Part shown: one piece after another, positions 2,899 to 63,959 of the stretch | How the letters are laid out: each line of letters begins with the position of its first letter | Position numbering within the stretch: the first letter of the stretch is position 1 | DNA from: an uncultured Gammaproteobacteria bacterium | Lineage (GTDB): Bacteria; Patescibacteriota; Microgenomatia; Levybacterales; GWA1-39-11 | Direction of reading: 5' to 3' | Length of the DNA: 64,000 nt | NCBI GenBank assembly: GCA_964651815.1 | Contig: CAZYWG010000005.1 | Span: 27,053 to 91,052 of the forward strand | Notes under the pieces: model-generated | The model's input: the letters and a program-made list of their open reading frames with translations, nothing else | Told to the model about the DNA's origin: nothing | Database searches by the model: none | Made by a program: the position numbers and the translations under genes

Positions 2899-4551
2899 TT
2901 ACAATTCTTGTCTAACTTTTTTAGAAATGTCCTTGACACTAAAATCTTGCTCATTATATTCAAGAGCAATAACAACACCACTTGATAATTTGTTTTCCTT
3001 CAAAACGTTTTTTAATAAGCCAATATCCGTGAAATAACCAAAACTCCTATCGCCTATCCTTCTGTACCCTTGTGAGTTAAGGTTCAATAAAAAGTCGTGG
3101 TTTAAAAACTTTCCCCATGTCGTTTCATTCCCAACAGAATATTTAACTAAAATATTCCAACCCGCTCCAGAACTAAAAGGTAACACCCAGTCCGGAGATA
3201 AACCAAATTCACTGTTGCGATAACACTTAACTTTGCACACAATATAAAAAATCGTGTTATTCGGAATGCTTGGATGAACTGCTTTGACATTGTTTAAAAA
3301 TGTGCGTCTTGCATATCCGCCGGTAACTTTATATTTTACTGCGGCTTGAATCTGTGAATATGAAGAATAAAAAAGTAGAACTAAAATAATTACTGCTACC
3401 ACTTTCTTAAATTTGTCCGCAACTTTAAATTTTCCGCTCGAAGAAAAAAGAAAGACTATGAATAAAGATGTAAAAAATAAAACAGGAACACTTGATAAAT
3501 ACAGATACCTTTCATCAACTATGTTTAAGTTCCTACCAGCAAATGAAAGTATTATGGCATTTAATAATATCCAACAAGAAAAGAAAATAATATATTTCAA
3601 CTTATCTTTGTTTTTCCAAAAAAACATTGATGCTGCAAATATCCATACAATTACACTGAAAAGGGAAATAAATGCCAAATCCATAAATACAGGATAGGCT
3701 TGTACAAATGAGACAGATATGCTCGGGTATGCCCAGGAAGTTTTATTAATTAGTAAATTAAAAACACCTGCAGCACTTATTAAGTTTTGTACAACAAGTT
3801 TTATTGGTAAACTCAATAAATTATAGATAACTGAGTTAAAATCAAAGCTTGATTCTTTAGGAATTGGGTCAATATTAAAAGCCTGAGAGACAACTCTAAT
3901 TATGAGAAACAAAAAAAGTCCTACAGCCAAATACATAAATGCTTTAATATTTCTTCCATTTAATTTCTCTCTATCGAAAGTCAGTAAATATACAACAAGT
4001 AAAGGCACTATAATAAAACCGTCTTCTCTAAATAACACCGAGCATAAAAACAAGCCGAAGAGAATAAATATATTCTTTATTGCAAAATATTTTTCCTTTA
4101 TACTCGCCAGATATATAAAAAATAAAACTATAAAAATGAAAGAACTTATGGTTGTCGAAAATATCGCTAAATGCATAAATGCTTCATAAGCTCTCCCATT
4201 GGTAGCAAAAAGAGTTGCCGTCAAAAATCCAATTCTATTATTTTTGCTGATTTTTGAGGTAAAAATAAAAACGAGTAACGTAGCTAAGGCATGCATCAAG
4301 AGCTCAATAAGAACATAATACTGTGAGTTCAATACAAAAACCTTATAAAGAATTAACCAAAAATAAAGTCCCAGGGGATTAAAATGGACGCCTTTACTAA
4401 TTAAGAATATCCACCAGGGTTGATTGTATGAATATATTATGTCGCCAAAAGCCCCCCATTCATCCTGCTGAAAAAAATTACCAAACAGACCATGAGTAAA
4501 GAATAAAATAATGGCGAAAAATAAAATGAAGTACAAAATATATTTCTTCAT
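2899..4551 (-). CDS. Polytopic membrane protein with a C-terminal soluble domain of about 170 aa; function unknown (possibly GT-C-like).
   Basis: 550 aa. The N-terminal roughly 380 aa are strongly hydrophobic. A DEWG motif sits near the first loop (FFQQDEWGAFGD). The tail is hydrophilic and rich in Cys, Gly and Arg. Confidence 0.55.
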   Translation of the reverse strand: MKKYILYFILFFAIILFFTHGLFGNFFQQDEWGAFGDIIYSYNQPWWIFLISKGVHFNPLGLYFWLILYKVFVLNSQYYVLIELLMHALATLLVFIFTSKISKNNRIGFLTATLFATNGRAYEAFMHLAIFSTTISSFIFIVLFFIYLASIKEKYFAIKNIFILFGLFLCSVLFREDGFIIVPLLVVYLLTFDREKLNGRNIKAFMYLAVGLFLFLIIRVVSQAFNIDPIPKESSFDFNSVIYNLLSLPIKLVVQNLISAAGVFNLLINKTSWAYPSISVSFVQAYPVFMDLAFISLFSVIVWIFAASMFFWKNKDKLKYIIFFSCWILLNAIILSFAGRNLNIVDERYLYLSSVPVLFFTSLFIVFLFSSSGKFKVADKFKKVVAVIILVLLFYSSYSQIQAAVKYKVTGGYARRTFLNNVKAVHPSIPNNTIFYIVCKVKCYRNSEFGLSPDWVLPFSSGAGWNILVKYSVGNETTWGKFLNHDFLLNLNSQGYRRIGDRSFGYFTDIGLLKNVLKENKLSSGVVIALEYNEQDFSVKDISKKVRQEL

Positions 4552-4554
4552 TAT

Positions 4555-6357
4555 TTAGTGAAAAAGGAAATCTTTAAAAATATTCTTTTTTGACTTTTGT
4601 TTTTTTATCATTTCTAACTTTTTTTTATACTTCGTAGCAATTTTCAAGTTGGTTTCGATACTAACCAAAAAATTACCGATTGCAAGATAATCTACTCCGG
4701 AGCTTAAAAAAGACCTCACAGCATCGTTAGGCGTACAGACAATTGGCTCTTCGTGCATATTAAAACTTGTATTAACAAGGCTTGGTATCCCTGTTATTTT
4801 GTAATACTCGGAAAGTATTTTGTAATAATTTGGATTATCCTTTTCTCGTAAAATCTGCGGCCTTGCTGTCCCGTCAACGTGAACTACAGCAGGGCTTACT
4901 TTTTTCATAAAAGGCGTGCATTCAAAAGTAATTGTCATAAACCTTGAAGAATATTCCGCCCCTTTTAAATCCTTAAAACACTTAGATGCAAATTTGTCTA
5001 GAGTGACCGGCGCAAACGGCATAAATTCAGTCCGTTTAAGTCGCTTATTAAGCCAATCGTTAGCTGTTTTATCGCGAGTATGATAAAGAATTGACCTATT
5101 CCCGAGTGCTCTCGGACCATATTCCATACGTCCTGCGAACCTTGCAACAATTTTTCCTGAAGAAATAAGTTCTGCAACTTTTGTTTCAATAATTTTCTCT
5201 CTTTTATATTTCAATTTATAAGAATCCAGAGTTTTTTTAATTTGCTCGCTTGTAAAATCTGGTCCAAAATAAACGTTTTGAGGTAGTTCTATTTTTTCCC
5301 CATTTGTGTATGCTGAATGAAGAGCTGCACCAAGCGCAAGTCCATCATCCCCCATTGCTTGGTGAATATAAATGTCACTAATTTCTTTCATCTCATGAAT
5401 TCTTTGATTAGCTTTAACGTTTGCGGCAACGCCACCCGCTAGCGCAATCTTATGTTCCCCCGTCTTCTTAACTGCATATTTAACAATTTCAACAAGACAG
5501 TCCTCAAGTCTTTTTTGAAATGCCGCTGCAATATCTTCCCGCTTAAACGGAGCAAGCTCTTCTGGAAGTTTTTTATTTACCAAATAAAAAGCGAGAAGCT
5601 TTAGGTATTTTTTGTGATTTAGTATAACTTTATCTTTTTTAATCCAAAGTAAATCCTCTGTGAATTTATAAAGTTTTCTAGGATCGCCATATGCTGACAA
5701 TCCGGTTATTTTTCCAGGATGTCTGTGCCGATCAAACCCCAAAATTTCTGTTACAATTTCATAAAATTTCCCCATGGAATTAGGGAGTTTGCTTTCAACT
5801 ATTTTTTCCCACTTGCCGCGTTTGACATGATGAATTGTGACAGTTTCAGTGAACCCCGAACCTTCATTAGCCATCACAAGACACTCATCCCAAGAAGACA
5901 GATAATAAGCCGCGTGCATATGTGCACTATGATGATGGTCAAAATCAATTTTCCCATTGAAACCCGCGAGTAATTTATCAACTTTATTTTTTGAAAAAAT
6001 AAATCTATATATATATGAAGGAAAACCGGACGCAATAAACAACTCTGCTAAAATCAGGAAGGGTTTCTTGAGCCAAAGCAAATACTCGCCTCCGGTTGAG
6101 GAGATTGGCCATATATTTTCTTTAAAATTCAACCACAAAGTACCAGGAAATGGGTCTTCAACGTAGGTTACAATATCTATGTCTTTTGGCTTAACTCCGG
6201 TATATTCAAAAAAATTCTTCAAAGCCCCAAGCGGAGCGTTTCTATCCATCTTTACCCTGGAAAAACGCTCATTTGAGGCAGCATATATTATTTTTCCATT
6301 CTCAACATATGCAACAGATGTATCATGCGTTCTTATATGTATACCCAATATTTTCAT
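4555..6357 (-). CDS. O-carbamoyltransferase of the NodU/CmcH/TobZ family.
   Basis: 600 aa. The N-terminal block ILGIHIRTHDTSVAYVENGKIIYAASNERFSRVK and the block HHHSAHMHAAYYLS are typical of the carbamoyltransferase Kae1-like domain. The C-terminal half includes RPQIL. Confidence 0.8.
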   Translation of the reverse strand: MKILGIHIRTHDTSVAYVENGKIIYAASNERFSRVKMDRNAPLGALKNFFEYTGVKPKDIDIVTYVEDPFPGTLWLNFKENIWPISSTGGEYLLWLKKPFLILAELFIASGFPSYIYRFIFSKNKVDKLLAGFNGKIDFDHHHSAHMHAAYYLSSWDECLVMANEGSGFTETVTIHHVKRGKWEKIVESKLPNSMGKFYEIVTEILGFDRHRHPGKITGLSAYGDPRKLYKFTEDLLWIKKDKVILNHKKYLKLLAFYLVNKKLPEELAPFKREDIAAAFQKRLEDCLVEIVKYAVKKTGEHKIALAGGVAANVKANQRIHEMKEISDIYIHQAMGDDGLALGAALHSAYTNGEKIELPQNVYFGPDFTSEQIKKTLDSYKLKYKREKIIETKVAELISSGKIVARFAGRMEYGPRALGNRSILYHTRDKTANDWLNKRLKRTEFMPFAPVTLDKFASKCFKDLKGAEYSSRFMTITFECTPFMKKVSPAVVHVDGTARPQILREKDNPNYYKILSEYYKITGIPSLVNTSFNMHEEPIVCTPNDAVRSFLSSGVDYLAIGNFLVSIETNLKIATKYKKKLEMIKKQKSKKNIFKDFLFH

Positions 6358-6358: not shown

Positions 6359-7567
6359 TTAGTTCTTTAAAACGTGTCGATATAATTCATAATGTTTTTT
6401 TGCAATTATACTCCAATACCTGTTTGATGCAGACTTTCTGAGAGACTTTTTTGTTCTTTCATAAAAGTCATTATCTTCAATTAACTTTTGAAGTTTGCCT
6501 TTGAATGAAGAGGACTCTTGAAGGTCAAATAACAAACCAAAATTATTATCCATTACTTCCTGCGCAAGCGGCTTCACGTCAGCAACAAGTAATGGTTTTC
6601 CATATGCTAAAACAACTGATAAAACGCCACTTGTGTTGAATGAATATACTGCCGTGATAACACATATTTTAGCCATTCTATAGAGTTCATTTACTCCTTC
6701 TGCATCAACAAATCCTGTGATTAATACTGAGTTTTCAATTTTTTTCTTTTTTATCAGTTTCTGTATCTTATTTTTATATTGAACAAATTCGGGCATAACG
6801 TCTCCTGCCAGAACCATTACCCACTCTTTTTTTAGCTTAGGATCTTCAAATACACGAGTTAAAGAATCAATTAATAACTCGTAGCCTTTTCTGGGAGAAA
6901 AATATCCAAAAGACAAAATAATTTTTTTACCTTTAAGAATTGGAAATTGTTTAAACATATTTGGATTTTTCGGTAAAGAATCTCTGTCAGAAATTTCTCT
7001 AATACCATGTGCAATAGTTATTATCTTAGTTGTATTACCAGCATATTCCTCTACGAGTCTTGTTTTTAAAAGATCAGTATGAACTGTTACCTCATTTGAA
7101 AAAAAAACGATTAATTTATAAATACTAATAAGGAAAAGTTTCACTAAAAAACTATTCAAAAAGTTATCTTTTAGGCCAAACCCTTCTAAAAAACTTTTGT
7201 CTATTTGTTTTTTTGATACAACAGTATGAATAGTGACTACAACTTTAAATCCGGTCAGTCTTAGCAGCGAAATTAACCACGGAAAAAGAGCTGCAGAAAT
7301 TACTCCCCCATAAGTCTTGAATTCATGTTGCAAGTGAACCAAATTGGGTTTCTTTTTCAATATATATAAATAGATAGGAATAAAAGAAAAAGACCCCTTT
7401 AACCATACCAAATCCACGCCAGGAAGCTTACCATCAGTTACGGGTTCATTTTTCCTACCACAAAGAAATAACTCATCACGAGGCTTCATAACCTTAATAA
7501 ATCCCTGGCTTAAATCTCGAGTATAATTGGTATCTGGTAGAAAATTTGCAACAAAAACAACTTTCAT
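6359..7567 (-). CDS. Glycosyltransferase with GT-B fold (GT4-like).
   Basis: 402 aa. The C-terminal half has a GT4-like architecture (ILSFGYFSPRKGYELL...VLAGD...ITGFV). The stop overlaps the next start by 4 nt. Confidence 0.65.
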   Translation of the reverse strand: MKVVFVANFLPDTNYTRDLSQGFIKVMKPRDELFLCGRKNEPVTDGKLPGVDLVWLKGSFSFIPIYLYILKKKPNLVHLQHEFKTYGGVISAALFPWLISLLRLTGFKVVVTIHTVVSKKQIDKSFLEGFGLKDNFLNSFLVKLFLISIYKLIVFFSNEVTVHTDLLKTRLVEEYAGNTTKIITIAHGIREISDRDSLPKNPNMFKQFPILKGKKIILSFGYFSPRKGYELLIDSLTRVFEDPKLKKEWVMVLAGDVMPEFVQYKNKIQKLIKKKKIENSVLITGFVDAEGVNELYRMAKICVITAVYSFNTSGVLSVVLAYGKPLLVADVKPLAQEVMDNNFGLLFDLQESSSFKGKLQKLIEDNDFYERTKKSLRKSASNRYWSIIAKKHYELYRHVLKN

Positions 7568-8601
7568 TCTTTCATCCTCTCACTTTTAATATAAGTTAGA
7601 ACTTTTCTAAAACCGTCCACGTTTGAAATTTTTGGCTTCCAACCGAGTTTTTTAATCTTTGAAATATCAGCATACCTTGATGCAACTCCCACAGGCTTAT
7701 TAACTAAGGGGGCGATTTTAGGGTTGTATCCTTCAATCTTAGCCATAATTTTTATAACATCCAAAAAACTTGTTAACTTTCCACTTCCAATGTTACAAGC
7801 AGATCCGTCCTTAATATTTTTCATGATCACAAAAAAAGCTTCAATGCAGTCATCTATATGGACAAAATCCCGCCCTTGTTTTCCTGTCCCCCAGACAGTA
7901 AGTGGGTTTTCTTGTCTTACAACTCTTCTCGCAATTGCGGGTATTGGATATGAAAAATCCTGGTCTTCACCGTAACCTGAAAACGGCCTAACGCATGCAA
8001 TTGGAATTTTATATCTTTCCGCGGCAAGATTACTTAAATATTCCCCAGTTAACTTACTCCATCCGTATGTCATATCCGGAATTCCGGTATAAGTTGCAAA
8101 GTCAATAAAATTTTCTTTCAGAGCTTTGTGATTTTTTTTCTTTTGTAAAGTAATTGGGTATGCGGCACTTGAACTTGCGTACATGACAGACCCAACATCT
8201 CTACTCCGTCTAGTCAGCCAGTGGAAAAATATAGAATCAATTGCCAAATCCCTGGCAACTAGAATGGGGTCCCCGTCTATTAATTCTCGCCCTCCAACAA
8301 TTGATGCAAGATGAAAGATTTTTTTAAATGAAGGGAGCGTTTGTTTTTTAATTTCTTCATTAAATACTTCAATTGCGTCTTTCAGAATGAAATGAATTTT
8401 TTTACCTTGGCTATCATAACTAACATAGTTTTTACTTATCCTATTTTTTTTGAATGATTTCCCTAACCAGATGTCTGGGTGCTTTCCAATAGACAAATCA
8501 TCAATTACCCAGATCTCGCCGGAACTAATTTTTTTTATAAGGTTTCTTCCTACAAACCCGCACCCTCCTGTTATTAAGAATACTTTTTTGCCGGCTTTCA
8601 T
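7564..8601 (-). CDS. NAD-dependent nucleotide-sugar epimerase/dehydratase (extended SDR).
   Basis: Rossmann motif ITGGCGFVGRNL and catalytic YGWSK (YxxxK). Confidence 0.8.
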   Translation of the reverse strand: MKAGKKVFLITGGCGFVGRNLIKKISSGEIWVIDDLSIGKHPDIWLGKSFKKNRISKNYVSYDSQGKKIHFILKDAIEVFNEEIKKQTLPSFKKIFHLASIVGGRELIDGDPILVARDLAIDSIFFHWLTRRSRDVGSVMYASSSAAYPITLQKKKNHKALKENFIDFATYTGIPDMTYGWSKLTGEYLSNLAAERYKIPIACVRPFSGYGEDQDFSYPIPAIARRVVRQENPLTVWGTGKQGRDFVHIDDCIEAFFVIMKNIKDGSACNIGSGKLTSFLDVIKIMAKIEGYNPKIAPLVNKPVGVASRYADISKIKKLGWKPKISNVDGFRKVLTYIKSERMKE

Positions 8602-9692
8602 TTGATAAATAAATTCTGGTTTAAATTACTGAACTTTTTTCGCCCGTTCAAAAAATAATCAAACACAATACTACGTTTATACAAGGGATATGGGGGACGA
8701 ATTTTATTTCCCAATTTTAAAGAAATATGCTTTCTCCTATTTAAGACATGTGGAATAAGAGAGATAACTCTCATATGAGCCAAAACAACCATTAATGCAT
8801 TCACAAAAATCTTGTTGTCAATAATGTAATACCCAATTGCTACATAATCTAACATTATTCTGAATGGTAGATAAAGAATAAGCTCTCGTGGCGTAAGATT
8901 CTTAAGTATTAACAACAAGTGGTTCCTATGATGTAGATAAATCTTTTTATACTTAAACTTGCTCATTGTTCCTGAACCATAATGATAAACAACAGAAGTT
9001 GGAATAAAAGTCAATCTGTATCCATAGAAATTCATCCTCCAACACATATCTACTTCCTCGCCATATATAAAAAATATATCATCCAATACTCCCACTTTTT
9101 TTACTACTTCATACTTAGTTACCATACACGCACCAGAACACCATGCCAAATCAACCTGAGAATCATATTGCCCGCGATCTTTTTCGCACACAAAAAAAAC
9201 TCTTCCTCTTGCAAAAGGAAATCCATACATATCCATAAAACCTCCGGCTGCCCCAGCATAATCAAAGTATTTTCTATTTCTATTACTTTTTATTTTTGGT
9301 TGACATGCACCTACGTCGGGATTATTTTCCATATAACTAATAATTGGCTGCAACCATTTTTTAGATACAATCACATCATCATTCAAAAAAACAATATAAC
9401 CTGATTTAATTTTCCCAAGTGCGAAGTTACACCCGCCGGCAAACCCTTTATTCTTTTTTAACCTGTAAAAATTTGCATTTTTAAGCATTTTGTATTTGTC
9501 ATAAAATTTTTTGTATCCATCAGGTTTTGAATTATTATCAACAAAAAAAAATTTTAAATTTGGATACCCACATTTAAGCATCGCTTCAATACACTCACCT
9601 ACAAAATCAAATTGGTTGTATGTGAGAATTATTACATTTACAAGAGGGCTTTTGCTTTTTGGTTTCTCTTTTTTGAGATTCGTGGTTTTCAT
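8598..9692 (-). CDS. GT2 family glycosyltransferase (GT-A fold).
   Basis: VNVIILTYNQFDFVGECIEAM...VDNNS and GFAGGCNFAL, typical of GT2 rhamnosyl/galactosyl-transferase-like enzymes. Confidence 0.8.
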   Translation of the reverse strand: MKTTNLKKEKPKSKSPLVNVIILTYNQFDFVGECIEAMLKCGYPNLKFFFVDNNSKPDGYKKFYDKYKMLKNANFYRLKKNKGFAGGCNFALGKIKSGYIVFLNDDVIVSKKWLQPIISYMENNPDVGACQPKIKSNRNRKYFDYAGAAGGFMDMYGFPFARGRVFFVCEKDRGQYDSQVDLAWCSGACMVTKYEVVKKVGVLDDIFFIYGEEVDMCWRMNFYGYRLTFIPTSVVYHYGSGTMSKFKYKKIYLHHRNHLLLILKNLTPRELILYLPFRIMLDYVAIGYYIIDNKIFVNALMVVLAHMRVISLIPHVLNRRKHISLKLGNKIRPPYPLYKRSIVFDYFLNGRKKFSNLNQNLFIK

Positions 9693-9695: not shown

Positions 9696-10298
9696 TTAAT
9701 CTTCAGTGATTTTTTTTACCACTCTTGCCGGATTTCCAACAACAATCGAATTTGGAGGAACGCTTTTCGTCACAATGGATCCGGCACCAACAACTGCTCC
9801 GTCACCTACAGAAACGCCGGGTAAAATTACAACGTGCGATCCTACCCAAACGTTTTTACCTATTGTGACTGGTTTGCTTGTATACCCTTTTTTATCAGAC
9901 AAGAGGTGGCTGTATTTTTCATGAGGAATTTTATGATTGAAGTCAGTAATAAATACATTTGGAGAAATCAAAGTATTGTCTCCAATTCGTAAAGTTTCAT
10001 GGGCAAAAATAAAAGTATAATCATGGATGTAAACATTATTTCCTATTAATATCTTCCCTTCAAATCCGGCTTTTAATCTTGCGCCATCCCCAATAAATGA
10101 ATTTTTACCTATACTAATTGAGTTTTTGACACTTTGAAAAATAATAACGTTTTTACCCAAAATTACCGAATATTCTAAGTTGTAATTTCTCAACCTTAGA
10201 AATAGAATTCGGACAATTGAAACCACTTTAGTCGAAATAATCATATTAATCTGGTATACGAATTCTACTAAACCTTTGTCTTTTAATTTTTTTAGCAT
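9696..10298 (-). CDS. Hexapeptide-repeat (left-handed beta-helix) sugar O-acetyltransferase, LacA/WbbJ-like.
   Basis: The C-terminus reads VTIGKNVWVGSHVVILPGVSVGDGAVVGAGSIVTKSVPPNSIVVGNPARVV, with clear hexapeptide repeats. Confidence 0.8.
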   Translation of the reverse strand: MLKKLKDKGLVEFVYQINMIISTKVVSIVRILFLRLRNYNLEYSVILGKNVIIFQSVKNSISIGKNSFIGDGARLKAGFEGKILIGNNVYIHDYTFIFAHETLRIGDNTLISPNVFITDFNHKIPHEKYSHLLSDKKGYTSKPVTIGKNVWVGSHVVILPGVSVGDGAVVGAGSIVTKSVPPNSIVVGNPARVVKKITED

Positions 10299-10625
10299 TT
10301 ATTTTTTTAGATTGTCTTTCAATAACAAAAGTGCTCCGGTAAACAAAAGAAAATAGCTTACATTTCCTAAAATCTCAGCAAGAAAATTGCTATTTATAAG
10401 AACTAGCAGCATCATTGCAAAAAAAAGTGAAACTCCAATTTTAATAAGACTTATCCCGTTTAATCCTGCAATAAATAAAATGCCAATCCACATAAATCCC
10501 GTTATTGAATATGGCAAGTACAAGTTAAGGTAAGGAATCTGTGGTAGTATAAAAAGACTAAAAGTAATTAATATTAAACCAACATAAAGTCCTTGTTTGT
10601 TAAAAGAAATTCTATTTTTTTCCAT
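10299..10625 (-). CDS. Small polytopic membrane protein (about 108 aa, 3-4 transmembrane segments). It could be a GtrA/GtcA-like small flippase.
   Basis: I recomputed the start to Met19 of the track ORF (MEKNRISF...; ATG at 10625-10623). The protein is hydrophobic throughout. Confidence 0.4.
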   Translation of the reverse strand: MEKNRISFNKQGLYVGLILITFSLFILPQIPYLNLYLPYSITGFMWIGILFIAGLNGISLIKIGVSLFFAMMLLVLINSNFLAEILGNVSYFLLFTGALLLLKDNLKK

Positions 10626-52123: not shown

Positions 52124-52283
52124 GAACTCAAAGAAAACACTGAAAATTTGTTTACAGTTGATTGGGATGTTGCCCTTTGTTAGAATTCGAATAATGTCAT
52201 TCCACGAGAATATTCGACTCTCGAGAGAAATCGAAAGAGATATTGAAAAAGATAGATAAACTGACGCTTCATACAAAGACCAA

Positions 52284-52526: not shown

Positions 52527-52550
52527 GCTATCTGTTTGAGCGCTGTTTTT
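52516..52550. terminator. Weak hairpin (CTCAAAC, 11-nt loop, GTTTGAG) followed by CGCTGTTTTT, at the convergence of the 52284..52526 (+) and 52528..53283 (-) genes. It may be a terminator for plus-strand transcription.
   Basis: Inverted repeat at 52516-52522 and 52534-52540, and a T-run at 52546-52550. The stem is only 7 bp and AT-rich. Confidence 0.25.
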
Positions 52551-55592: not shown

Positions 55593-56739
55593 GAAAAACG
55601 TTTAATATTTTTAGTATTGCAGATGTTGCAAGAATATACAAAAAAGGCAAAAGAGGCAAAAAATATCTGACTGATGTATATCCTACTGAAAGCATTAAAC
55701 TGTAAACTACAATCCACAAAAGCATTAAAATCTCCGGCGATACCATCTTCGTTCTCTTTAGGTAGGTAACAAACAACGCTACTATAATTAGAACTACAGA
55801 TAATGGCCAAATTATGTTCCAATTTACGTCATGCAAAATTGCCCTTGTCCCCCACCAAGTATGCCAATTATTAAAAAGTAACAAATCCCAAAAAGAAAGC
55901 GGATTAGTAATGGCAGACTTGTGGTAAAGAAGAATATATTTTTGTACACCCAATATCTTTATCAAAGAATATCCGTTGATAATAGTAACCGTATAAGATA
56001 AGAACAATATGATAAGTGAAAGTGGTTGCAACAGAAGAAATGTAATAAACTTTTTACTAAAGTCACGTCTAAATATAAAAAACAGAATCATAGAGATAAG
56101 CATAAAAACTCCAGTGATAAAAAATCGAATACTAATTACAAATCCAATCCCCAAGGCAACAAGCACAAACCATCTTATATAATTTTTACTGTCGACTCCT
56201 TTTAAAAAGAAATAAAATGTGAACAATATAAAAGGGAGTTGTGCAACTTCTCCAAGTGGCGTGGTAGATAATTTTTCAATCATTAAAGGCTCATTTAAAA
56301 AAATCGCCAATGGAATTAAAGCAAATGCATTCTTATTAAGTAGGAATTTTCCCAGTAAAAAAACTGCACATCCGGAAGCAAAAAAAAGAGGAATAGTAAA
56401 CGTATTTTCATTATCAAAAAGTAAAATTGAAAGTGAAACAATATATCTTCCTAAAGGTGGATGATCATGAACAATTAGTATTGGGCTGAGACCCCTTAAA
56501 AAGATTCCTCCTGCAAAAGCTTCGAACGTTTCATCGGGAATAATAACTGGGTTTTTCTTTTTTGCATATTGGGATGAATAATATAAGCTTTTGAGAGCAG
56601 GATATTCTTTAGCATAATGTCTTGAAAAAAATTTGTCTCTATTTTTGTAAATTGTGTTTATCGGGTTAATTAAGATTAAAAGAAGAAAAATTAGTGCAAA
56701 CAACTTATTTGATAATATCTTGTTAATTTTTAGTAACAT
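55570..56739 (-). CDS. Polytopic membrane protein (389 aa); unclassified GT-C-like candidate.
   Basis: About 10 hydrophobic segments. It sits between a family B gene and a YfhO-like gene. Confidence 0.5.
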   Translation of the reverse strand: MLLKINKILSNKLFALIFLLLILINPINTIYKNRDKFFSRHYAKEYPALKSLYYSSQYAKKKNPVIIPDETFEAFAGGIFLRGLSPILIVHDHPPLGRYIVSLSILLFDNENTFTIPLFFASGCAVFLLGKFLLNKNAFALIPLAIFLNEPLMIEKLSTTPLGEVAQLPFILFTFYFFLKGVDSKNYIRWFVLVALGIGFVISIRFFITGVFMLISMILFFIFRRDFSKKFITFLLLQPLSLIILFLSYTVTIINGYSLIKILGVQKYILLYHKSAITNPLSFWDLLLFNNWHTWWGTRAILHDVNWNIIWPLSVVLIIVALFVTYLKRTKMVSPEILMLLWIVVYSLMLSVGYTSVRYFLPLLPFLYILATSAILKILNVFHVDVKNK

Positions 56740-58405
56740 AAAGTCTTTTTGGAAAAATTAAAAGTCCAATTATTATAAAAGCCGATACAATAGAAATTAA
56801 TTCCGACAAAATCCTAATTTTTGTATCCTTAAATATAACGTCAACTGTGTGGTTTCCCGAAGTTATAAAATAAGTAATCAAACCACGATTTGCAGGATCT
56901 TGAAACTGAACCTGATCATCTTTAACACCATCAATATAAACTGTCCAATTGGGAAAATATAAAGTGTTCTCACGAATTTCACTATTGGTAGATGCAATTA
57001 TTCGATATTTATGGTGTGTTGAATTTCTTGAAGTCAGATCAATTTTAGCCTGTCCTCCAATTACTTCTGCCTGTGCCGCGGGTTTTTTCTCCATGAATCT
57101 GACTGACCAAATCGGTGCACTTTCCCCAGTATCAGTCGTGCCATTATAAACTCCCGAATAAAAAGATTCAGGTTTTATAATATATCCGATTGGTTGCCAG
57201 TAATTCCATTGAAAGATAAGAATGAAGAGCATGGAAAATAAAAGAAGAATGAATTGATTTTTTTTACTAGTTTTATTAACAACTATGGCTCCCATAACTG
57301 CTGCGGCAAAAATGGCAGTTGCAAGAAATCTCCATGGGAATTGAAATTTTTCAAGAATGCTAAAAGTTTTCCAAACAAAAGTTGAAATGGAAAGCATAAT
57401 AAAAACGCTCCCTAAAAAGTACAGAATAACACTTAAGTATAATATTAGACTTGTCTTTTCTTTATTGAAACGCTTGTAAGCAGTAGCCAAAAATGCCAAG
57501 ACTGCAATCCATTGTAAAAGTCCTAATTGGACAGAAAAACTTCCTGACAATCCATAAATCCAAGACCCATAAAACAAATCTTTTATCTGGACAAAATGGT
57601 AAAACGCCTCATCTTTTGTCACTATATCTCTCAATGTGTATTTACCTTCTAAAAGCGCCGGAACCCAAAAAAAAGCAGCTAAACCAAATCCTAAAATTAA
57701 CGCACTCATAAATTGATACGCAAGGATTTTTCTGTTTTTAGAATTGTAGATTAAATAAACGCCATACAAAGTTATAAATGGTAAAAACATAAGACTCATA
57801 GCGTTATGCGCTAAGATAAGAGCGCAAATTGAAACCGATATTCCGGCAAAATATGCAGAATTAATTTGCTTAAGTCTTGTCACAGATTCAGCGTTATTTG
57901 AACTCTTAAGCATGAAAAATAAAATTAGCGGAGGGAAAATAAAAGCTACTTGTTCTCCAATATCTCCCCTAATATAAAAGTCCACAAATCTATATGGTGC
58001 AAAATTATAAAGAACTGAGCCTATTGTTGCTGCAGTTTCCCCTAAAAATTCATTCAGCCAAAGATACATCGTGATTCCACTTAGAATGAATGCCATACCC
58101 ATAACTAATTTGAATGAATCAACAAAGGAAAATCCCAAAAAATGAAATAATGAAGAAACATAAGAAGGTAAAGGGTAAAGAAACGTTAAAATAGGATGTC
58201 CGTATCCCCAATTTAAATTTCCTGCCCATCGAGGAATAATATTACCCTCTGAAAGTGACAAATAAAAATTAGCTATTCTGGCAACATGATCCTGCCCGTC
58301 GTGGGTGAGTGGAAGACCTGTGTGAAACAGAGGAACAACAGGAATAAAACTGAGAACCAGAATTATAATAATGCCAAAATGCTTTTTAAATAATTTCTCC
58401 AACAT
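56723..58405 (-). CDS. Family B polytopic membrane protein (YfhO-superfamily-like GT-C candidate), paralog B3.
   Basis: THDGQDHVARI...IIPRWAGNLNWGYGHPILTFLYPLPSYV at the N-terminus. YFPNWTVYIDGVKDDQVQFQDPANRGLITYFITSGNHTVDVIF near the C-terminus, followed by a TM anchor. Confidence 0.65.
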   Translation of the reverse strand: MLEKLFKKHFGIIIILVLSFIPVVPLFHTGLPLTHDGQDHVARIANFYLSLSEGNIIPRWAGNLNWGYGHPILTFLYPLPSYVSSLFHFLGFSFVDSFKLVMGMAFILSGITMYLWLNEFLGETAATIGSVLYNFAPYRFVDFYIRGDIGEQVAFIFPPLILFFMLKSSNNAESVTRLKQINSAYFAGISVSICALILAHNAMSLMFLPFITLYGVYLIYNSKNRKILAYQFMSALILGFGLAAFFWVPALLEGKYTLRDIVTKDEAFYHFVQIKDLFYGSWIYGLSGSFSVQLGLLQWIAVLAFLATAYKRFNKEKTSLILYLSVILYFLGSVFIMLSISTFVWKTFSILEKFQFPWRFLATAIFAAAVMGAIVVNKTSKKNQFILLLFSMLFILIFQWNYWQPIGYIIKPESFYSGVYNGTTDTGESAPIWSVRFMEKKPAAQAEVIGGQAKIDLTSRNSTHHKYRIIASTNSEIRENTLYFPNWTVYIDGVKDDQVQFQDPANRGLITYFITSGNHTVDVIFKDTKIRILSELISIVSAFIIIGLLIFPKRLYVTKN

Positions 58406-58423: not shown

Positions 58424-59335
58424 CTAGATCGAAAAACTTCCACGGCCAAATCTACGTAAATAATAATCACGAACTCCTTTTTTTTGCCATGGCCTTCCGG
58501 AAGCAAGAATCTTAAAACTTTCACGAATTAACGCTACCTTAGTTCTTATAGGTGCATAGCGTTCGCCAAATAATAGTCGATTTCGTGTGATGTAATAATC
58601 CTGAAGGATCGAACCGCTTCCGGATGATCCGGCGTTTATATGCCACATAACAGCTTTTGGTTCATAAAGAATTTTGTATCCTGCTTTTTTAATTCTTTGA
58701 GTCAAATCCGCATCCTCATAATACAGAAAGAATTTGTCATCAAAAAGCCCAATTTTATTTAAAACTTCTGTTTTTATCAAAAAACAACAACCCGTTGCTA
58801 AATCAGTCTCTTTTTTTACGTCGAATTGCCCTTGATCCACTTCGTCAACTCCAATATTGTGTCCTATCAAATTGTCCCAATCCATTTCTCCACCCGCATA
58901 CCAAATGACCTTCCCAAGATCCGAATTTTTATATCTATCTTTATGAAATTCAAAACCTTTAGCAAAATATATTTTAGGCAAAACCCCTCCAACATTTTCA
59001 CCATTTGCCGCTCCTACTAAATTCCCAATCAAATTTTCACTAACTTCTGTATCGTTATTGAGAAGCATTACAAAATCCGCATCGTGGTTAATTCCATATC
59101 TCATACCCTCATTACATCCTCCGGTGAATCCTAAGTTCTTCTCATTTTCAATAAATATTACATACGGGAATTTCTTTTTTATAATATCTAGATACCCATC
59201 ATTTGAAGCATTATCTACAACTACAATTTCTATCTTTATCTCTTTTGTTTTTTTATTTTTAGCAAGCGACTCAAGACAAGCAACTGTTTTCTCTCCACCT
59301 TTGTAATTCAAGATTACTACGTAAACGCTTTTCAT
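58424..59335 (-). CDS. GT2 family glycosyltransferase.
   Basis: VYVVILNYKGGEKTVACLESL...IVVVDNASNDG, GFTGGCN and a C-terminal YYEDADL motif. Confidence 0.8.
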   Translation of the reverse strand: MKSVYVVILNYKGGEKTVACLESLAKNKKTKEIKIEIVVVDNASNDGYLDIIKKKFPYVIFIENEKNLGFTGGCNEGMRYGINHDADFVMLLNNDTEVSENLIGNLVGAANGENVGGVLPKIYFAKGFEFHKDRYKNSDLGKVIWYAGGEMDWDNLIGHNIGVDEVDQGQFDVKKETDLATGCCFLIKTEVLNKIGLFDDKFFLYYEDADLTQRIKKAGYKILYEPKAVMWHINAGSSGSGSILQDYYITRNRLLFGERYAPIRTKVALIRESFKILASGRPWQKKGVRDYYLRRFGRGSFSI

Positions 59336-60267
59336 TTTTTGATTTTTGAGGAAGATATTTTTCTTGCAGTTTTTAAAAGTATTTTTTTAAAGGGGTTTTT
59401 TGCGTTATCAATTAAATTTGAGGTAGCCCAATATTTTACCTTTTCTCCCGAGTTTTTTAACTCCTCTTTAACATTTTTCAAGAAAGTTGGTTCGTTAACC
59501 TCTATAAACTTATTTTTCTCCCAAAGTTTGGCAAAAACAACCTCCATATAAAATGCTTGCAGTATTGAAAGAACCAAACCATGTAAACCGTCTCTGAATC
59601 CTTTTTGTAAAAAAAATGTTTTAACAAAATCGTCAACTGGAAATCGGATAGCATCTAAAAAATTGAAATTGTAATCTTTCACAAGATTTTCTGCTTCAAT
59701 ATCAGTATAGTTATTTAGTTTTTTTATGTATTGTGAAATTGAATTGTAATTATTATGTAAAATTGGACTTTCAATTTTTATTGTTTCACCATTTACAGTT
59801 AATGCGTGATGGACCTCGTTTTTTTCAAACTTCCCTTTTCCGCGGCGAAAAAATTTCAACTGATAATCTGGCCACCACATATCACTCTGAATCCATTTAC
59901 CGAATATTATATTTTTGCGTGGAACCCATATACCGCTAACATTATTATTTGTGTCGTCGATTGTTCTTTTTATTTCGTCAGCGAGTTCTTCAGAAATTTG
60001 TTCATCTGCATCCAAGCTTAAAATCCAATCGCCTGAGGCTTTTGAAAAACCAAAATTTTTTTGTAAGTCTATTTCCTGTGGATTATTTTTTTGAGAATAT
60101 ATTTTTTTAGTATATTTTTTGGCAAAATCAAGCGTTTTATCGGAAGATTCATGATCTATAACAATAATCTCATCTGCCAAATTTTCAACAGAAGTAAGGC
60201 AAGAATCAATGTTTTCTTCCTCATTATACGCAGACACAACCACAGATAAAGTGTTTTTTTTGCTCAT
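59332..60267 (-). CDS. GT2 family glycosyltransferase (paralog group with 34751..35533 and 52528..53283).
   Basis: LSVVVSAYNEEENIDSCLTSVENLADEIIVIDHESSDKTLDFAKKY. Confidence 0.8.
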   Translation of the reverse strand: MSKKNTLSVVVSAYNEEENIDSCLTSVENLADEIIVIDHESSDKTLDFAKKYTKKIYSQKNNPQEIDLQKNFGFSKASGDWILSLDADEQISEELADEIKRTIDDTNNNVSGIWVPRKNIIFGKWIQSDMWWPDYQLKFFRRGKGKFEKNEVHHALTVNGETIKIESPILHNNYNSISQYIKKLNNYTDIEAENLVKDYNFNFLDAIRFPVDDFVKTFFLQKGFRDGLHGLVLSILQAFYMEVVFAKLWEKNKFIEVNEPTFLKNVKEELKNSGEKVKYWATSNLIDNAKNPFKKILLKTARKISSSKIKK

Positions 60268-61706
60268 TTTTTGATTATCCGCCTAATATCACTTACTACT
60301 TCTTTCCCTTTAAAGGCGTACATTATACTAAAGTAAATTCCGCCACAAACAGTGCTCATAATAATTAATTCCGGCAGACTTCTTACAAAATAGGCGCAAG
60401 AAAAATATGTGATTATTCCCATTATACCAGCTGATACTATTGGTTGATAAATACTACCCCAAAATTTGAAGTCCACAATTTTTCTTACCAAATGTACTGT
60501 ATATAAAATAGTAAGTGTCACCAAAAATGAGGCAATTGCAACCCCATTGTAACTGTAAAAGTGAATCATAAGGGGTGTTATAATCCATATTAAAATCGTC
60601 CACACAACCATAAGTTGCAGGGTCCATTTAACTTTCCCGTTGGAGTCCAAAACATTAATTAGTATTCCGGAAAGAGAAGATACCATTGCGTTAAGCGAGA
60701 AAAAAACAACAGAAATATACGCACCTTCCCATTTATTATGCCAATGTGGAAAATAACGGATAAGTGACGGCCCCGCAATTATTAATCCTGTCAAAAGAGG
60801 GAACATAATAAGCGCAACAAAAAACAAAGATTTCTCAATTGACAGCCTCAGCATTTTCTTATCATCTTGAAACCTTGCGTAGGTAGAAAAAGTAACACGA
60901 GTCACGCTATCAACAAAGTATCTGTATGGATAAAAAGCAAGGCTTTGGGCAACACCAATAAATCCTATCTGAGCAAAGCTTAAGAACCTCGCCAAAATTA
61001 CCGTTAAAAAATCGTCCTTAATTGTTGCAAGAACGTTTTTTGCTTGGAATTGTAACCCAAATTTCAAATGCACAAGAGACGCCTTATGAACTCCAACCCC
61101 AAATTCCCAAGGTGAAACCAGAAAATAAAATGGAACACTTGAAATACTTGAGACTAAAAACGCCCAAGTATACGCAGTTATTCCAAAACGATTCAAAACC
61201 AAAGTTAAAAGAATAAGATTAAACACTACAGATTCCACAAGTTGTGGAATAACTAGTTTGTGAAAATGAATTTTACGCTCAAGAAGTATTGACGGAATCA
61301 CTTTAAATGAAGAAAGAAAAATTGTAAAGACTAGAGCAAGCAACAATCCGTAGGCATCATTATTTAGTCGCAATAATGAAGAGAGCGGTGACCTTAAAAT
61401 CAGTGTTAAAAAGAATACCCCCCCAGTTAGCGCGGCTTGTAATGTAAAACTTGTGCGCAGATCCTCACGCGTCAATTCTTCCTTTTTTTGGACTAATGCA
61501 GCACCAAAACCAAAATCCGTAAAAAAACTAATGACCCTTTGAATTGCTATAACTACCGTGTATATTCCAACTTGAGCAGGGGTGAAAATACTAAAAATTA
61601 TGATTGAAGTACCTACTGTCAAAACATCAAGAATGACAGTTCTTGAAATAAATGCAACAATCCCCTTTAGTGTTTGCTCAATAATTGAAGAATTAGAATT
61701 TTCCAT
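60264..61706 (-). CDS. MOP-superfamily (Wzx-like) polysaccharide flippase.
   Basis: 480 aa with about 12-14 hydrophobic segments and the typical 'polysaccharide biosynthesis protein' topology. It lies immediately 3' of a DPM1-like GT2. Confidence 0.6.
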   Translation of the reverse strand: MENSNSSIIEQTLKGIVAFISRTVILDVLTVGTSIIIFSIFTPAQVGIYTVVIAIQRVISFFTDFGFGAALVQKKEELTREDLRTSFTLQAALTGGVFFLTLILRSPLSSLLRLNNDAYGLLLALVFTIFLSSFKVIPSILLERKIHFHKLVIPQLVESVVFNLILLTLVLNRFGITAYTWAFLVSSISSVPFYFLVSPWEFGVGVHKASLVHLKFGLQFQAKNVLATIKDDFLTVILARFLSFAQIGFIGVAQSLAFYPYRYFVDSVTRVTFSTYARFQDDKKMLRLSIEKSLFFVALIMFPLLTGLIIAGPSLIRYFPHWHNKWEGAYISVVFFSLNAMVSSLSGILINVLDSNGKVKWTLQLMVVWTILIWIITPLMIHFYSYNGVAIASFLVTLTILYTVHLVRKIVDFKFWGSIYQPIVSAGIMGIITYFSCAYFVRSLPELIIMSTVCGGIYFSIMYAFKGKEVVSDIRRIIKK

Positions 61707-61708: not shown

Positions 61709-62428
61709 TTAAATCCTAGCGTTATGAATATCTGACCACAAAATTAGACTCTCTAAAACTGCCCTGACAACAACAGGAAGATTTGCACCTGTCTGAAGTC
61801 CAAATTGCCTTTGATAATGACTAACTTCAACTTGAGTTATTTTTAATTTTTTTCTTTTTGCTTTTGCCAAAATTTCAGTAGTTACCATTGCGCCCTCCGA
61901 CCTCAAAGGCATAATCTGGCTTAGTGCTCCTCGTGTAAACATCTTAAAACCGCAATCAATATCCTTAAACCAGAATCCAAACAATACAAAATCCCAAATT
62001 TTAAGTAAGTTCATGAGGAGCAATCTTTTTCCAAGATTATGGTCACGCCTTTTTTTTCTAAATCCAATAACCATATCTGAGTTATTAATCTCATCAACAA
62101 ATTTTGTGACCTCTGAAAAATCAAATTGTCCGTCGCCATCAGTAAAAACAATATATTTATATTTTGCAGCATCAAAACCCGCTTTCAGTGCAGCCCCATA
62201 TCCGCGGTTAGGCTTATGAGACACAACTTTTATATTTTTGTTTTGTTTAGCCAAACCTTTCCCTTCCTCAAGGGTACCGTCGGACGACCCATCATCAATT
62301 ATTATTACTTCCCACACATTTGCCACGTTTGGTGCTACAGCAATAGCCTTAGAAACAACTTGACTTACATTTTTCTCCTCATTCCAGAAGGGGAAGAAGA
62401 TGGATAACTCAGGAAGTTTTTTTGCCAT
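61709..62428 (-). CDS. GT2, a DPM1/ArnC/GtrB-like polyprenyl-phosphate sugar synthase.
   Basis: LSIFFPFWNEEKNVSQVV...VIIIDDGSSDGT...HKPNRGYGAALKAGFDAAKYKYIVFTDGDGQFD. The length of 239 aa fits. Confidence 0.75.
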   Translation of the reverse strand: MAKKLPELSIFFPFWNEEKNVSQVVSKAIAVAPNVANVWEVIIIDDGSSDGTLEEGKGLAKQNKNIKVVSHKPNRGYGAALKAGFDAAKYKYIVFTDGDGQFDFSEVTKFVDEINNSDMVIGFRKKRRDHNLGKRLLLMNLLKIWDFVLFGFWFKDIDCGFKMFTRGALSQIMPLRSEGAMVTTEILAKAKRKKLKITQVEVSHYQRQFGLQTGANLPVVVRAVLESLILWSDIHNARI

Positions 62429-63959
62429 AAAAAATATTGGATTTACTTATTATAACAAGGATCATGGCTATAACTCCAACAGTTGATAGCATATCAGAAA
62501 TTATCTCGATTATTGTTTGGGAAGACTTGAACTTAACTGAACGGAGTCCGCCGGGAACTTCTGTAAAAAAACCATTGCTTTCGCTCCTGAGACTAGGATC
62601 AAACTGAAGCTTTTGAGTAGGATCATTAGGCTTTACAAAATTTTTTGGCAAATACTCATCGGAAATTTTGGATGCGGTCCATGTAAGATATTCTGAATTT
62701 GTGTAATAACTAACATTTCTATTTAAATTTCTCTGTGGAACAAATAGTTTCGTATTAAACAATAAAGTTGAAAAAATAACAAGGACAGCCAAAATTATCC
62801 CTAAATTTTTATGATATCTTTCTCCAAAAGACCATACCAAAAATCCAATGAGAAAACTTGTAAATACACCCGCAAAATTTAGGAATCTCCACGGAAATTG
62901 CAAGAAATTCATAAAAGGCGCTTGCCACAAAATTTTTGACGAGGCTTGCATCATAAATATTGAAAAAAATAGAAAACAAAATGACATTAGTGTAATAACC
63001 TTTCTCTCTTTGAGTTTTTTAAAACTTAAAAATAATAGAATTAAAGCCAGAACGACAAATGCAATATTGGATTTTCCAAGCCTAAAGCTCAAACCATCAA
63101 TGCACCCCGGCGCAGAACCCCCAAAACCCCAAGGACTGTCCCAAAGTTGACTAATACATACAAAGTTTTGAGAAAAGTCTGATCCACCAACAAGCTGTGA
63201 CGCAATGTTGGTAAATTTCACCTCGCTAACTGCTGGCACCACATAAAAAGCGGATAGAAGAAATGACAAGAGAAATATTAAACAGTAAGAAATGATAAGA
63301 TTTTTTTTATTTTTCCCAAAGATTAGAGAGAACAGAATAAAAATTCCTAAAAACAACGCTAGCATAAAAGCGGACAGATTGTGTGATAAAACTACTGCAG
63401 AAATAGATAATGATGCTAAAGTAATATATTTTTTAGAAATTGTTTTTTTTTCGATTGAGAAAATTTTAAAAAACGATAAAAATACAATTGGAAGGAAAGC
63501 GTAAGCAAAAATTTCTGCAAGGTCCCCTCTCACATATATATTTACAGCGTGATAAGGAAAGTACAAATAAACGATCGATGCAACTAGACCTGGAATTTTA
63601 CCAAAAAAGTTTTCGGTCAAAAAATACATTGATATCCCCGCAAGTAAAATTCCAATGACAAAAATTATTTTTGTAGAAACTAACGCATCAAATCCTAAGA
63701 TATTAACTAAGCCACCTAAATAATAAGGCAGTACGGAGTAGAAATTAAATATTGGGTAACCAAGTCCATATCCAAGATCTGCAACCCATCTTACTGGAAG
63801 TGCCCCGGATAAAATACTTTTCCCCATTTCAAAAACTCTTGCAACCTGCACGTCATCATGAATTTGGAAAAAACCATTTGAAAAAAAAGGGATGACTGAA
63901 AAAACTGAAAGTACAAAATATAAGATTATATTTATTTTATCTGAAATAATTTTATTCAT
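62409..63959 (-). CDS. Family B polytopic membrane protein (YfhO-superfamily-like GT-C candidate), paralog B4. It is the most divergent of the four.
   Basis: IHDDVQVARVF...LPVRWVADLGYGLGYPIFNFYSVLPYYL. The C-terminus has a TM anchor. The upstream ORF appears to end with a TGA overlapping this ATG, so the operon continues beyond the window. Confidence 0.6.
   Translation of the reverse strand: MNKIISDKINIILYFVLSVFSVIPFFSNGFFQIHDDVQVARVFEMGKSILSGALPVRWVADLGYGLGYPIFNFYSVLPYYLGGLVNILGFDALVSTKIIFVIGILLAGISMYFLTENFFGKIPGLVASIVYLYFPYHAVNIYVRGDLAEIFAYAFLPIVFLSFFKIFSIEKKTISKKYITLASLSISAVVLSHNLSAFMLALFLGIFILFSLIFGKNKKNLIISYCLIFLLSFLLSAFYVVPAVSEVKFTNIASQLVGGSDFSQNFVCISQLWDSPWGFGGSAPGCIDGLSFRLGKSNIAFVVLALILLFLSFKKLKERKVITLMSFCFLFFSIFMMQASSKILWQAPFMNFLQFPWRFLNFAGVFTSFLIGFLVWSFGERYHKNLGIILAVLVIFSTLLFNTKLFVPQRNLNRNVSYYTNSEYLTWTASKISDEYLPKNFVKPNDPTQKLQFDPSLRSESNGFFTEVPGGLRSVKFKSSQTIIEIISDMLSTVGVIAMILVIISKSNIFYGKKTS

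Follow-up and report, generated by a model that had tools for sequence, protein, structure and literature searches.

A probable cell-envelope glycan biosynthesis supercluster rich in GT-C glycosyltransferases in Candidatus Levybacteria

Multi-component systems of transmembrane glycosylation are known from several bacteria and include GtrA/GtrB/GtrC, CsbB-GtcA-YfhO, GacI/J/K/L and ArnC/ArnT (PMC8035078; PMC11127046). Systems of the Gtr and CsbB-YfhO type combine a polyprenyl-phosphate sugar synthase of glycosyltransferase (GT) family 2 (GT2), a flippase and a glycosyltransferase of the GT-C fold with an acidic outer loop, and known bacteria have one to three of them, scattered and each serving one side-chain sugar. 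Analysis of a 64,000-nucleotide stretch of DNA (the window; positions 27,053 to 91,052 of contig CAZYWG010000005.1, assembly GCA_964651815.1), deposited as an uncultured Gammaproteobacteria bacterium and of the GTDB lineage Patescibacteriota, Levybacterales, revealed a gene array which is probably the greater part of a supercluster, no shorter than 71 kb, for the biosynthesis of a cell-envelope glycan and made up of several such modules. The component families are known; what is unusual is the scale and density of the array, which occurs in a reduced genome of the Candidate Phyla Radiation (CPR) and is conserved clade-wide.

The locus shares with the Gtr and CsbB-YfhO type the three components named above, the Pfam families YfhO and PMT_2 and the adjacency of synthase and GT-C genes, and its synthases, as in the case of GacI, are without transmembrane (TM) helices. 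It differs in bringing together at least 23 GT-C proteins and four synthases in one co-directional array, in having two Wzx-type MOP flippases instead of a flippase of the GtrA family, and in containing GT-C families (those of g02, g27 and g09/g00; genes are numbered g00 to g51 along the window) without a Pfam model.

Regarding the assembly of lipomannan, lipoarabinomannan (LAM) and arabinogalactan in mycobacteria and corynebacteria (Ppm1; PimE, MptA/B/C; AftA-D; EmbA-C), there too few donors serve many linkage-specific GT-C enzymes that build an extracytoplasmic polymer, and since few lipid donors appear to feed many GT-C enzymes here (four donor synthases against at least 23 GT-C proteins), this assembly may be the closest working analogy. 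The locus also has proteins annotated as members of the MptA_B family (g28 and an upstream paralogue), an AftD-like layout of g09, and GT4 enzymes which could prime a lipid anchor. However, the phylum is unrelated, evidence of a phosphatidylinositol anchor was not found in the locus, and the likeness is at the level of the fold only, sequence identity being negligible; regarding the decaprenyl-phosphate arabinose pathway and the Emb and Aft families, no Arabinose_trans or UbiA-type match was obtained in the window, but only a weak match of GT-C_AftD on g00. The mycobacterial genes are spread over several loci, whereas those described here are contiguous.

The rhamnose-rich rgp, gac and cwps loci of streptococci and lactococci, likewise from monoderm bacteria, resemble the array in their RmlD-type genes, GT2 and GT4 enzymes, Wzx-type flippase, GT-C side-chain transferases and variable tailoring, but contain one to three GT-C genes and rely for the rhamnan backbone on an ABC transporter, of which there is no counterpart here, and at roughly 20-30 kb they are far smaller. 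Enzymes of family GT39 (PMT/POMT and mycobacterial Pmt) share with the locus the N-terminal PMT/PMT_2 module, the invariant Asp-Glu after the first TM helix (TM1; g34 to g37) and the polyprenyl-phosphate-sugar donor; g35 scores 58 bits on PMT_2 and 55 bits on PMT (PF02366, cut-off 22.7). The locus differs from GT39 systems in its four tandem paralogues and short forms, and Pfam reported neither a PMT_4TMC nor a MIR domain for g32 to g37.

Open reading frames (ORFs) of at least 100 amino acids numbered 52 in the window (GC content 33%) and tile it nearly completely, about 99% being coding. Coordinates given below are those of the window, and features are on the minus strand unless stated otherwise. 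Every ORF was scanned against Pfam with gathering cut-offs, and NCBIfam matches were judged by the curated cut-offs; the scanned Pfam copy was without the newer model PF26314, and a missing Pfam match can be an artefact of the library version. Fifty consecutive ORFs (g02 to g51) occupy the minus strand from 2899 to 63959 according to ORF listing and translation, the sole break in the run being a 775-bp gap (51753-52527) with two small plus-strand ORFs. The initial annotation had described about 50 genes on one strand with 4-nt overlaps; the number of genes was borne out, but the exact 4-nt overlap occurs at 11 of the 51 places where one ORF of the window meets the next, while many of the other junctions overlap by different lengths. 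Large overlaps (-52 to -85 nt), seen at several junctions besides that of g08 and g09, are probably start-codon overcalls. Glycosyltransferase genes account for 34 of the 52 ORFs. Searches for tRNA genes and Rfam families returned nothing, and scanning the 775-bp gap for promoters and terminators gave results no better than for shuffled sequence.

The array is not bounded by the window but continues beyond both edges. In flanks read from overlapping Logan contigs of SRR9179560 and SRR9179562 (L083 for the side of the window end), it starts 7.4 kb past the window end, where the peptide deformylase gene (def), in divergent orientation, immediately precedes it. Between def and g51 there are five additional array genes, encoding a DPM1-like GT2, an MptA_B GT-C, a PMT_2, a YfhO and a PTPS-family protein, which bring the totals to a fourth DPM1-like GT2, a second MptA_B, a third YfhO and a fifth PTPS-family protein. 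The upstream MptA_B protein (398 aa) is 34% identical to g28 and has PF26314 on record, while the scanned Pfam copy gave a weak GT87 match below cut-off (E 9.5e-5). GT4 genes carry on beyond the window start, and with these extensions on the two sides the whole cluster comprises no less than 71 kb and no fewer than 23 GT-C genes. A genome of about 1 Mb is typical for the Levybacteria group, and contigs of relatives reach 0.65-0.92 Mb; if the genome is of about that size, the cluster makes up about 7% of it. The genome is, as the initial annotation envisaged, small and AT-rich, and it is of Levybacteria type within the CPR.

Nineteen ORFs encode large polytopic membrane proteins (g00, g02, g09, g21, g26 to g28, g32 to g38, g41, g44 to g46 and g51), and we assign all of them to GT-C, although the strength of the evidence varies. 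Eighteen of them lie within 2899-63959, and g00 (2-2041), outside this run, makes up the approximately 19 proposed earlier. The Pfam gathering score was passed by 13 of the 19. Seven are of PMT_2 type, namely the short forms g21 (23148-24479; 46.7 bits), g32 (35561-36844) and g33 (36844-38343) and the tandem paralogues one to four, g34 (38345-40036), g35 (40033-41682), g36 (41684-43393; 65 bits) and g37 (43390-45102). Four are PTPS_related proteins (PF10131), g26 (28645-30327), g38 (45099-46748), g46 (56723-58405) and g51 (62409-63959; 64.8 bits), the last being the gene upstream of which the cluster goes on past the window end, and two belong to YfhO, g41 (48384-50675; 97.5 bits) and g44 (53256-55592; 83.7 bits). 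PF10131 is a member of the Pfam GT-C clan CL0111 (PMC7801869), and the PTPS and YfhO families match one another at 96-97% in hhalign.

The GT-C fold was also found for the members without a match in the Pfam scan. For g28 (32104-33216), the scan was blank even at E<=5, yet precomputed annotation places PF26314 (MptA_B_family, GT87-like) on the exact protein and on an orthologue. The 389-aa g45 (55570-56739), a short PMT_2/GT39-like protein, has no Pfam match itself, but many orthologues (50-60% identity) carry PF13231 (PMT_2) and the NCBI name GT39. The proteins g02 (2899-4551; 550 aa) and g27 (30269-32104; 611 aa, with three extra N-terminal TM helices) belong to families without a Pfam model, that of g27 being large (6075 clusters at 50% identity, E<=1e-3), and AlphaFold2 models from alignments of 33 and 26 homologues, respectively, have a mean pLDDT of 90.8. 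The 1127-aa g09 (10612-13995) begins, according to hhalign and a TM map, with a GT-C module (residues 1-405), which is followed by an extracytoplasmic stretch of some 660 aa and by a TM helix at the C-terminus; the module matches PTPS alignment A3 at 93.9% over 337 columns, and the invariant Asp of the PTPS family lines up with an Asp of g09. The 679-aa g00, in which ten TM helices at the N-terminus precede a soluble domain and a last TM helix at the C-terminus, is 28% identical to the g09 N-terminus (blastp, E 2e-19), matches the PTPS family at 74% in hhalign and has a weak Pfam match to GT-C_AftD (E 0.059). The MOP flippases, included in these hhalign comparisons as negative controls, stayed below 3%. 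PDB sequence searches using g35 or family profiles (g02, g27 and PTPS) gave nothing meaningful, and fold comparison took their place.

In total, the GT-C proteins fall into at least seven sequence families, where at least five had been counted before, and at least three of these are without a Pfam model. A short K/R-rich N-terminus is present on all 19, and nearly all have an acidic conserved loop right after TM1, with invariant acidic residues such as D30-E31 in g02, D42 in the PTPS family (g38 in alignment A3), D38-E39 in g35, D44-E45 in g34 (invariant in 41 sequences), D36 in g41, and others. This loop would be the expected GT-C catalytic loop, facing outward as judged by the positive-inside rule only. 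The g27 family includes fusions of GT2 with GT-C, of PMT_2 with GT-C and of GT-C with a C-terminal NHL beta-propeller (P0224, P0324, P0225, P0296), and several of its members have sub-threshold Dpy19 matches.

Pfam tallies of the remaining glycosyltransferases and of the flippases were identical to those of the initial annotation (11 GT2, four GT4 and two flippases), and all GT2 and GT4 calls pass the cut-offs. The GT2 genes comprise g06 (8598-9692), g10 (14000-15076), g40 (47449-48387) and g47 (58424-59335) of a long type, g20 (22309-23148), g31 (34751-35533), g43 (52528-53283) and g48 (59332-60267), and three encoding proteins of about 240 aa, g23 (25608-26366; 252 aa), g39 (46715-47452; 245 aa) and g50 (61709-62428; 239 aa). 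The GT4 genes (Glycos_transf_1) are g04 (6359-7567), g22 (24484-25593), g25 (27593-28648) and g42 (50679-51752), and the MOP (Wzx-like) flippases are encoded by g24 (26350-27609; Polysacc_synt and Polysacc_synt_3) and g49 (60264-61706; Polysacc_synt_3, 148.6 bits).

The products of g23, g39 and g50 are mutual paralogues, and the earlier view of them as DPM1-like polyprenyl-phosphate sugar synthases is supported, since their best matches are ArnC, DPMS and GtrB. The seven top PDB matches of g39 are ArnC, DPMS of Pyrococcus and GtrB (E 2e-14 to 1.3e-13); NCBIfam matches of g39 and g50 include AglJ, PgfS, ArnC and PpgS, all below cut-off, those of g23 include ArnC, PpgS and PgfS, and Dol-P-hexose transferases are also among the sub-threshold NCBIfam matches of the small GT2 proteins. 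Synthase genes adjoin GT-C genes at g39-g38, at g50-g51 and upstream at the GT2-MptA_B pair, and functional coupling of synthase and GT-C is supported by the existence elsewhere of proteins in which a GT2 is fused to a g27-like part.

The enzymes of nucleoside diphosphate (NDP)-6-deoxyhexose synthesis and of methyl, acetyl and carbamoyl transfer that had been noted before are present according to Pfam and NCBIfam. The sugar-nucleotide set includes the sugar-1-phosphate nucleotidyltransferase g15 (18194-18994; an NTP-transferase with glucose-1-phosphate cytidylyltransferase, TIGR02623, as best match, 254 bits, below the cut-off of 300), the RmlC-like cupin epimerase g12 (15918-16367; dTDP_sugar_isom) and six short-chain dehydrogenase/reductase (SDR) enzymes. 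Two of the latter pass an NCBIfam cut-off, the dTDP-4-dehydrorhamnose reductase RmlD, g11 (15022-15939; TIGR01214, 229 bits, cut-off 224), and the UDP-glucose 4-epimerase GalE, g30 (33756-34835; TIGR01179, 394 bits, cut-off 262); the others are g05 (7564-8601; sugar-nucleotide epimerase or reductase, NCBIfam matches all below cut-off), g13 (16428-17519; epimerase or dehydratase), g16 (19053-20099; NDP-sugar dehydratase or epimerase, with GDP_Man_Dehyd in addition) and g19 (21371-22312; epimerase or reductase), all four matching Pfam Epimerase. The tailoring set consists of the NodU/CmcH-type carbamoyltransferase g03 (4555-6357; Carbam_trans_N and Carbam_trans_C, E 8e-60), the hexapeptide-repeat acyltransferases g07 (9696-10298) and g18 (20817-21383; both Hexapep), the FkbM-type methyltransferase g17 (20083-20814; Methyltransf_21) and the S-adenosylmethionine-dependent methyltransferases g14 (17465-18187) and g01 (2158-2892, plus strand), both Methyltransf_11 and 44% identical in blastp. 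That methylation and acetylation take place at oxygen is a guess at the regiochemistry.

Conservation was assessed in 80 fetched loci, the ORFs of which were annotated by blastp against the window proteins. Orthologues of g35 with 50-68% identity were detected in about 80 species-representative metagenome-assembled genomes (MAGs), nearly all of them Candidatus Levybacteria/Levyibacteriota, with weaker ones in Roizman-, Shapiro- and Blackburnbacteria and Microgenomatus, the best overall being 68% identical, which places the species of the window outside this set of representatives. The recurrent order in Levybacteria is MOP(g49)-GT2-GT2-...-GT2(g43)-GT4(g42)-YfhO(g41)-GT2(g40)-DPM(g39)-[PTPS]-PMT_2 x2-6-short PMT_2-PTPS-GT2(g31)-GalE(g30)-DUF5667(g29)-MptA_B(g28)-g27-PTPS(g26)-GT4-MOP(g24)-DPM(g23)-GT4(g22), which is kept across dozens of Levybacteria MAGs, g31 being the most conserved core gene (up to 72% identity in relatives). 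The distal block g10-g09-g08-g07-g06-g05-g04-g03-g02-g00 keeps its order in another MAG (L089), and the block g31-g22 is kept in a further one (L088). In the relative loci of at least 20 kb (n=31), GT-C homologues have a median count of 10 per 21.6 kb, and co-directional ORFs make up 95%. With gene order, conservation and source lineage established in this way, the cluster is a feature of Levybacteria as a clade and not peculiar to one genome.

The four tandem PMT_2 paralogues share 30-34% identity with each other but 55-68% with their own orthologues in other Levybacteria, and therefore represent old duplications of which each copy has been maintained, which argues for distinct linkage or acceptor roles and against the redundancy ascribed to the array; the combinatorial character likewise ascribed to it is not supported. 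A recent expansion of redundant paralogues is rejected on the same figures. Downstream of the g21 orthologue, L088 (CAYVKP010000001, 18939-21824) has genes for an epimerase, a GT2, Polysacc_deac_1 and Formyl_trans_N (ArnD/ArnA-like) where the window has the 6-deoxyhexose and methyltransferase module, and this part is therefore seen as a species-variable sugar cassette. Many MAG records titled as uncultured Gammaproteobacteria bacterium (L007, L010, L014, L015, L017 and others with CAY*/CAZ* accessions) show the Levybacteria-type order with 55-65% identical proteins, and such titles look like taxonomic mislabels.

The general mechanism that these parts suggest is highly probable. In the cytoplasm, g15, the SDR enzymes with RmlD (g11) and GalE (g30), and the RmlC-like g12 would supply donors, the methyl-, acetyl- and carbamoyltransferases would tailor the sugars, and soluble GT2 and GT4 enzymes would make lipid-linked precursors. 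The DPM1/GtrB/ArnC-like GT2 enzymes (g23, g39, g50 and the fourth one upstream) are predicted to place single sugars on polyprenyl phosphate, and the two MOP flippases, perhaps together with g08, to carry lipid-linked sugars across the membrane. On the outer face the GT-C proteins, 19 in the window and at least 23 in the cluster, may then each transfer the sugar of a polyprenyl-phosphate-sugar to a specific acceptor position. As the initial annotation had stated, the acceptor is not identifiable in the window; we lean slightly towards a glycan rather than a protein, that is, mainly a glycan polymer or lipoglycan which we infer to be assembled stepwise outside the cytoplasm. Pointing in this direction are the MptA_B members, a family that to our knowledge is known only from lipoglycan work, the AftD-like layout of g09 and g00 (a GT-C module followed by a large outer domain and a closing TM helix), and the F5/8-C domains, which are sugar-binding, on distant homologues of g02. 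The YfhO members point the same way, their family being known for the glycosylation of teichoic acids (PMC8035078), as does the mycobacteria-like ratio of four donor synthases to at least 23 GT-C proteins.

Several points weigh against this reading. The synthases g23, g39 and g50 are without the C-terminal TM helices of GtrB, CsbB and ArnC, and the donor sugars are not assignable because all NCBIfam matches of these proteins are below cut-off. A GtrA-family flippase (PF04138) was not matched by any ORF, although a Wzx-type flippase is an accepted alternative to GtrA, as with GacK (PMC8035078). Among the GT-C proteins, the loop after TM1 of g45 is K/R-rich and ambiguous, g00 is the weakest assignment, a putative one of moderate probability by profile comparison only, and g09 is likewise assigned from profiles only, if more strongly at 94%; topology was derived from hydropathy and the positive-inside rule only. 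No acceptor, priming phosphoglycosyltransferase, LCP-type ligase or GtrA is present in the window or the visible flanks, and the PMT_2/PMT-type proteins (g34 to g37, with g35 passing the PMT cut-off) can also O-glycosylate proteins. Co-directionality is no proof of one operon or one product, and all data are metagenome assemblies, so that the findings are inferred from MAGs.

It is possible, though less probable, that the array consists of several independent envelope pathways, such as a Wzx-dependent heteropolysaccharide, three-component decorations and a lipoglycan, placed head-to-tail and packed together by CPR compactness and co-directionality. The two MOP flippases and four polyprenyl-phosphate sugar synthases would fit this, as would the separable blocks (the g10-g00 unit in L089 and g31-g22 in L088), the 775-bp break with its opposite-strand genes and the species-dependent module downstream of g21 that is ArnA/ArnD-like in L088. 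However, the order of the blocks is itself kept across dozens of genomes, no unrelated gene intervenes in more than 71 kb, and such an arrangement is compatible with a supercluster of several modules rather than opposed to it.

A role mainly in protein O-glycosylation, in which GT-C enzymes of PMT_2/PMT type and some others would use polyprenyl-phosphate-sugars to glycosylate Ser/Thr of secreted or surface proteins (S-layer, type IV pilins, Ser/Thr-rich disordered tails) and further ones would extend the glycans, seems rather unlikely. Besides the PMT score of g35 and the invariant Asp-Glu after TM1, it is favoured by the streptococcal GtrB with the GT-C PgtC2 and by the Pgf system, which act on Ser/Thr-rich regions of membrane proteins (PMC12041528), by the protein glycosylation families AglJ and PgfS among the NCBIfam matches of g39 and g50, and by the richness of CPR cells in pili (PMC6744442). 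On the other hand, the PMT_4TMC domain was not detected in the PMT_2 proteins, for the MptA_B, YfhO and AftD-like members the acceptors on record are glycans or lipoglycans, the cluster encodes no candidate acceptor protein, and at least 23 GT-C enzymes for protein O-glycans would be without precedent.

An ordinary large Wzx/Wzy-type O-antigen or capsule locus would account for the Wzx-like flippases, the GT2 and GT4 enzymes, the 6-deoxyhexose pathway and the tailoring enzymes, but is very improbable: Wzy_C, Bac_transf, Glycos_transf_4, Wzz and Poly_export had no match on the 52 ORFs and the five upstream genes, so that of such a locus only the Wzx-like part is present while polymerase (Wzy/Wzy_C), initiating phosphoglycosyltransferase and Wzz/Wza/Wzc-type genes are absent, and the polytopic proteins, without exception, prove to be GT-C enzymes of the lipid-phosphate-sugar kind. 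CPR bacteria are, moreover, thought to be without an outer membrane (PMC6744442). The initial view that the array goes beyond a normal O-antigen or capsule locus is thus upheld by the lack of GtrA, Wzy, priming phosphoglycosyltransferase and export genes in this set, and the ordinary locus is rejected. A transporter identity of the large membrane proteins, or any other identity outside the glycosyltransferases with a spurious GT-C likeness, for which the six of 19 without a match in the scanned Pfam copy (g28 having the precomputed MptA_B match) and the MmpA 'lipid delivery' NCBIfam matches on proteins without a Pfam match (25-27 bits against a cut-off of 210, taken as noise) might be cited, is effectively refuted by the Pfam and hhalign matches to GT-C with MOP controls below 3%, and the refutation that the initial annotation had allowed for has failed.

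The remaining genes of the window are small or of doubtful function. The ORF g08 (10299-10679), with no Pfam match even at E<=1 and no NCBIfam match, encodes a small 4-TM protein; its longest-ORF call is 126 aa from a TTG start with a 68-nt overlap with g09, but the L089 orthologue in the same position has 108 aa, and the start is therefore probably the ATG at 10625, giving a length of 108 aa. This protein is a candidate flippase or synthase partner. The membrane-anchored protein g29 (33229-33807) matches DUF5667 (E 1.9e-5) and is a conserved member of the core cluster, with orthologues in the same slot of relatives; a DUF5667-like segment also occurs in the outer region of g09 (residues ~666-716, weak; E 2e-4 in the L089 orthologue), and the DUF5667 part could be an acceptor-binding or chain-length factor. 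Of the two plus-strand ORFs in the 775-bp gap, the first (51890-52123) encodes a 77-aa DUF5652 membrane protein (E 9e-23) which tblastn located in 20 relatives, lying there between the orthologues of g43 and g42, while the second (52284-52526; 80 aa) had no homologue in any relative fetched and may not be a real gene. The methyltransferase gene g01 stands on the opposite strand between g02 and g00, and because it is absent between the directly adjoining g02 and g00 orthologues of L089, it looks like a lineage-specific insertion or duplication.

A description of GT-C superclusters in CPR was not found in the literature searched, a limited full-text collection, and a CPR protein-family survey names envelope and pilus families but no glycosyltransferases (PMC6744442). 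The locus offers concrete targets for the study of the CPR envelope, namely the four lipid-sugar synthases, the conserved GT-C set and the variable sugar module, and the relatives of g27 in which GT2 and GT-C are fused could help to assign donors to orphan GT-C proteins. GT-C enzymes are usually rare in bacterial genomes, and CPR bacteria (Patescibacteria) are regarded as ultra-small episymbionts whose metabolism is minimal. It is at their surface that they meet hosts and phages, and the chemistry of this surface is essentially unknown; that a whole CPR lineage keeps a GT-C-dominated array exceeding 70 kb implies that selection acts on a complex surface glycan. As a tentative and rather speculative proposal, Levybacteria, and more broadly Microgenomatia, with genomes of about 1 Mb, might devote about 7% of the genome to a single contiguous assembly line, in which at least 23 GT-C enzymes, each linkage-specific, build a complex branched envelope lipoglycan or wall heteropolysaccharide, almost wholly outside the cytoplasm, from a few polyprenyl-phosphate-sugars. 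Such a glycan would be an independently evolved CPR counterpart of LAM and arabinogalactan; it would act as the main polymer of the envelope and as the interface at which the cell attaches to hosts and is recognised by phages, with the species-variable sugar module possibly giving it antigenic diversity.

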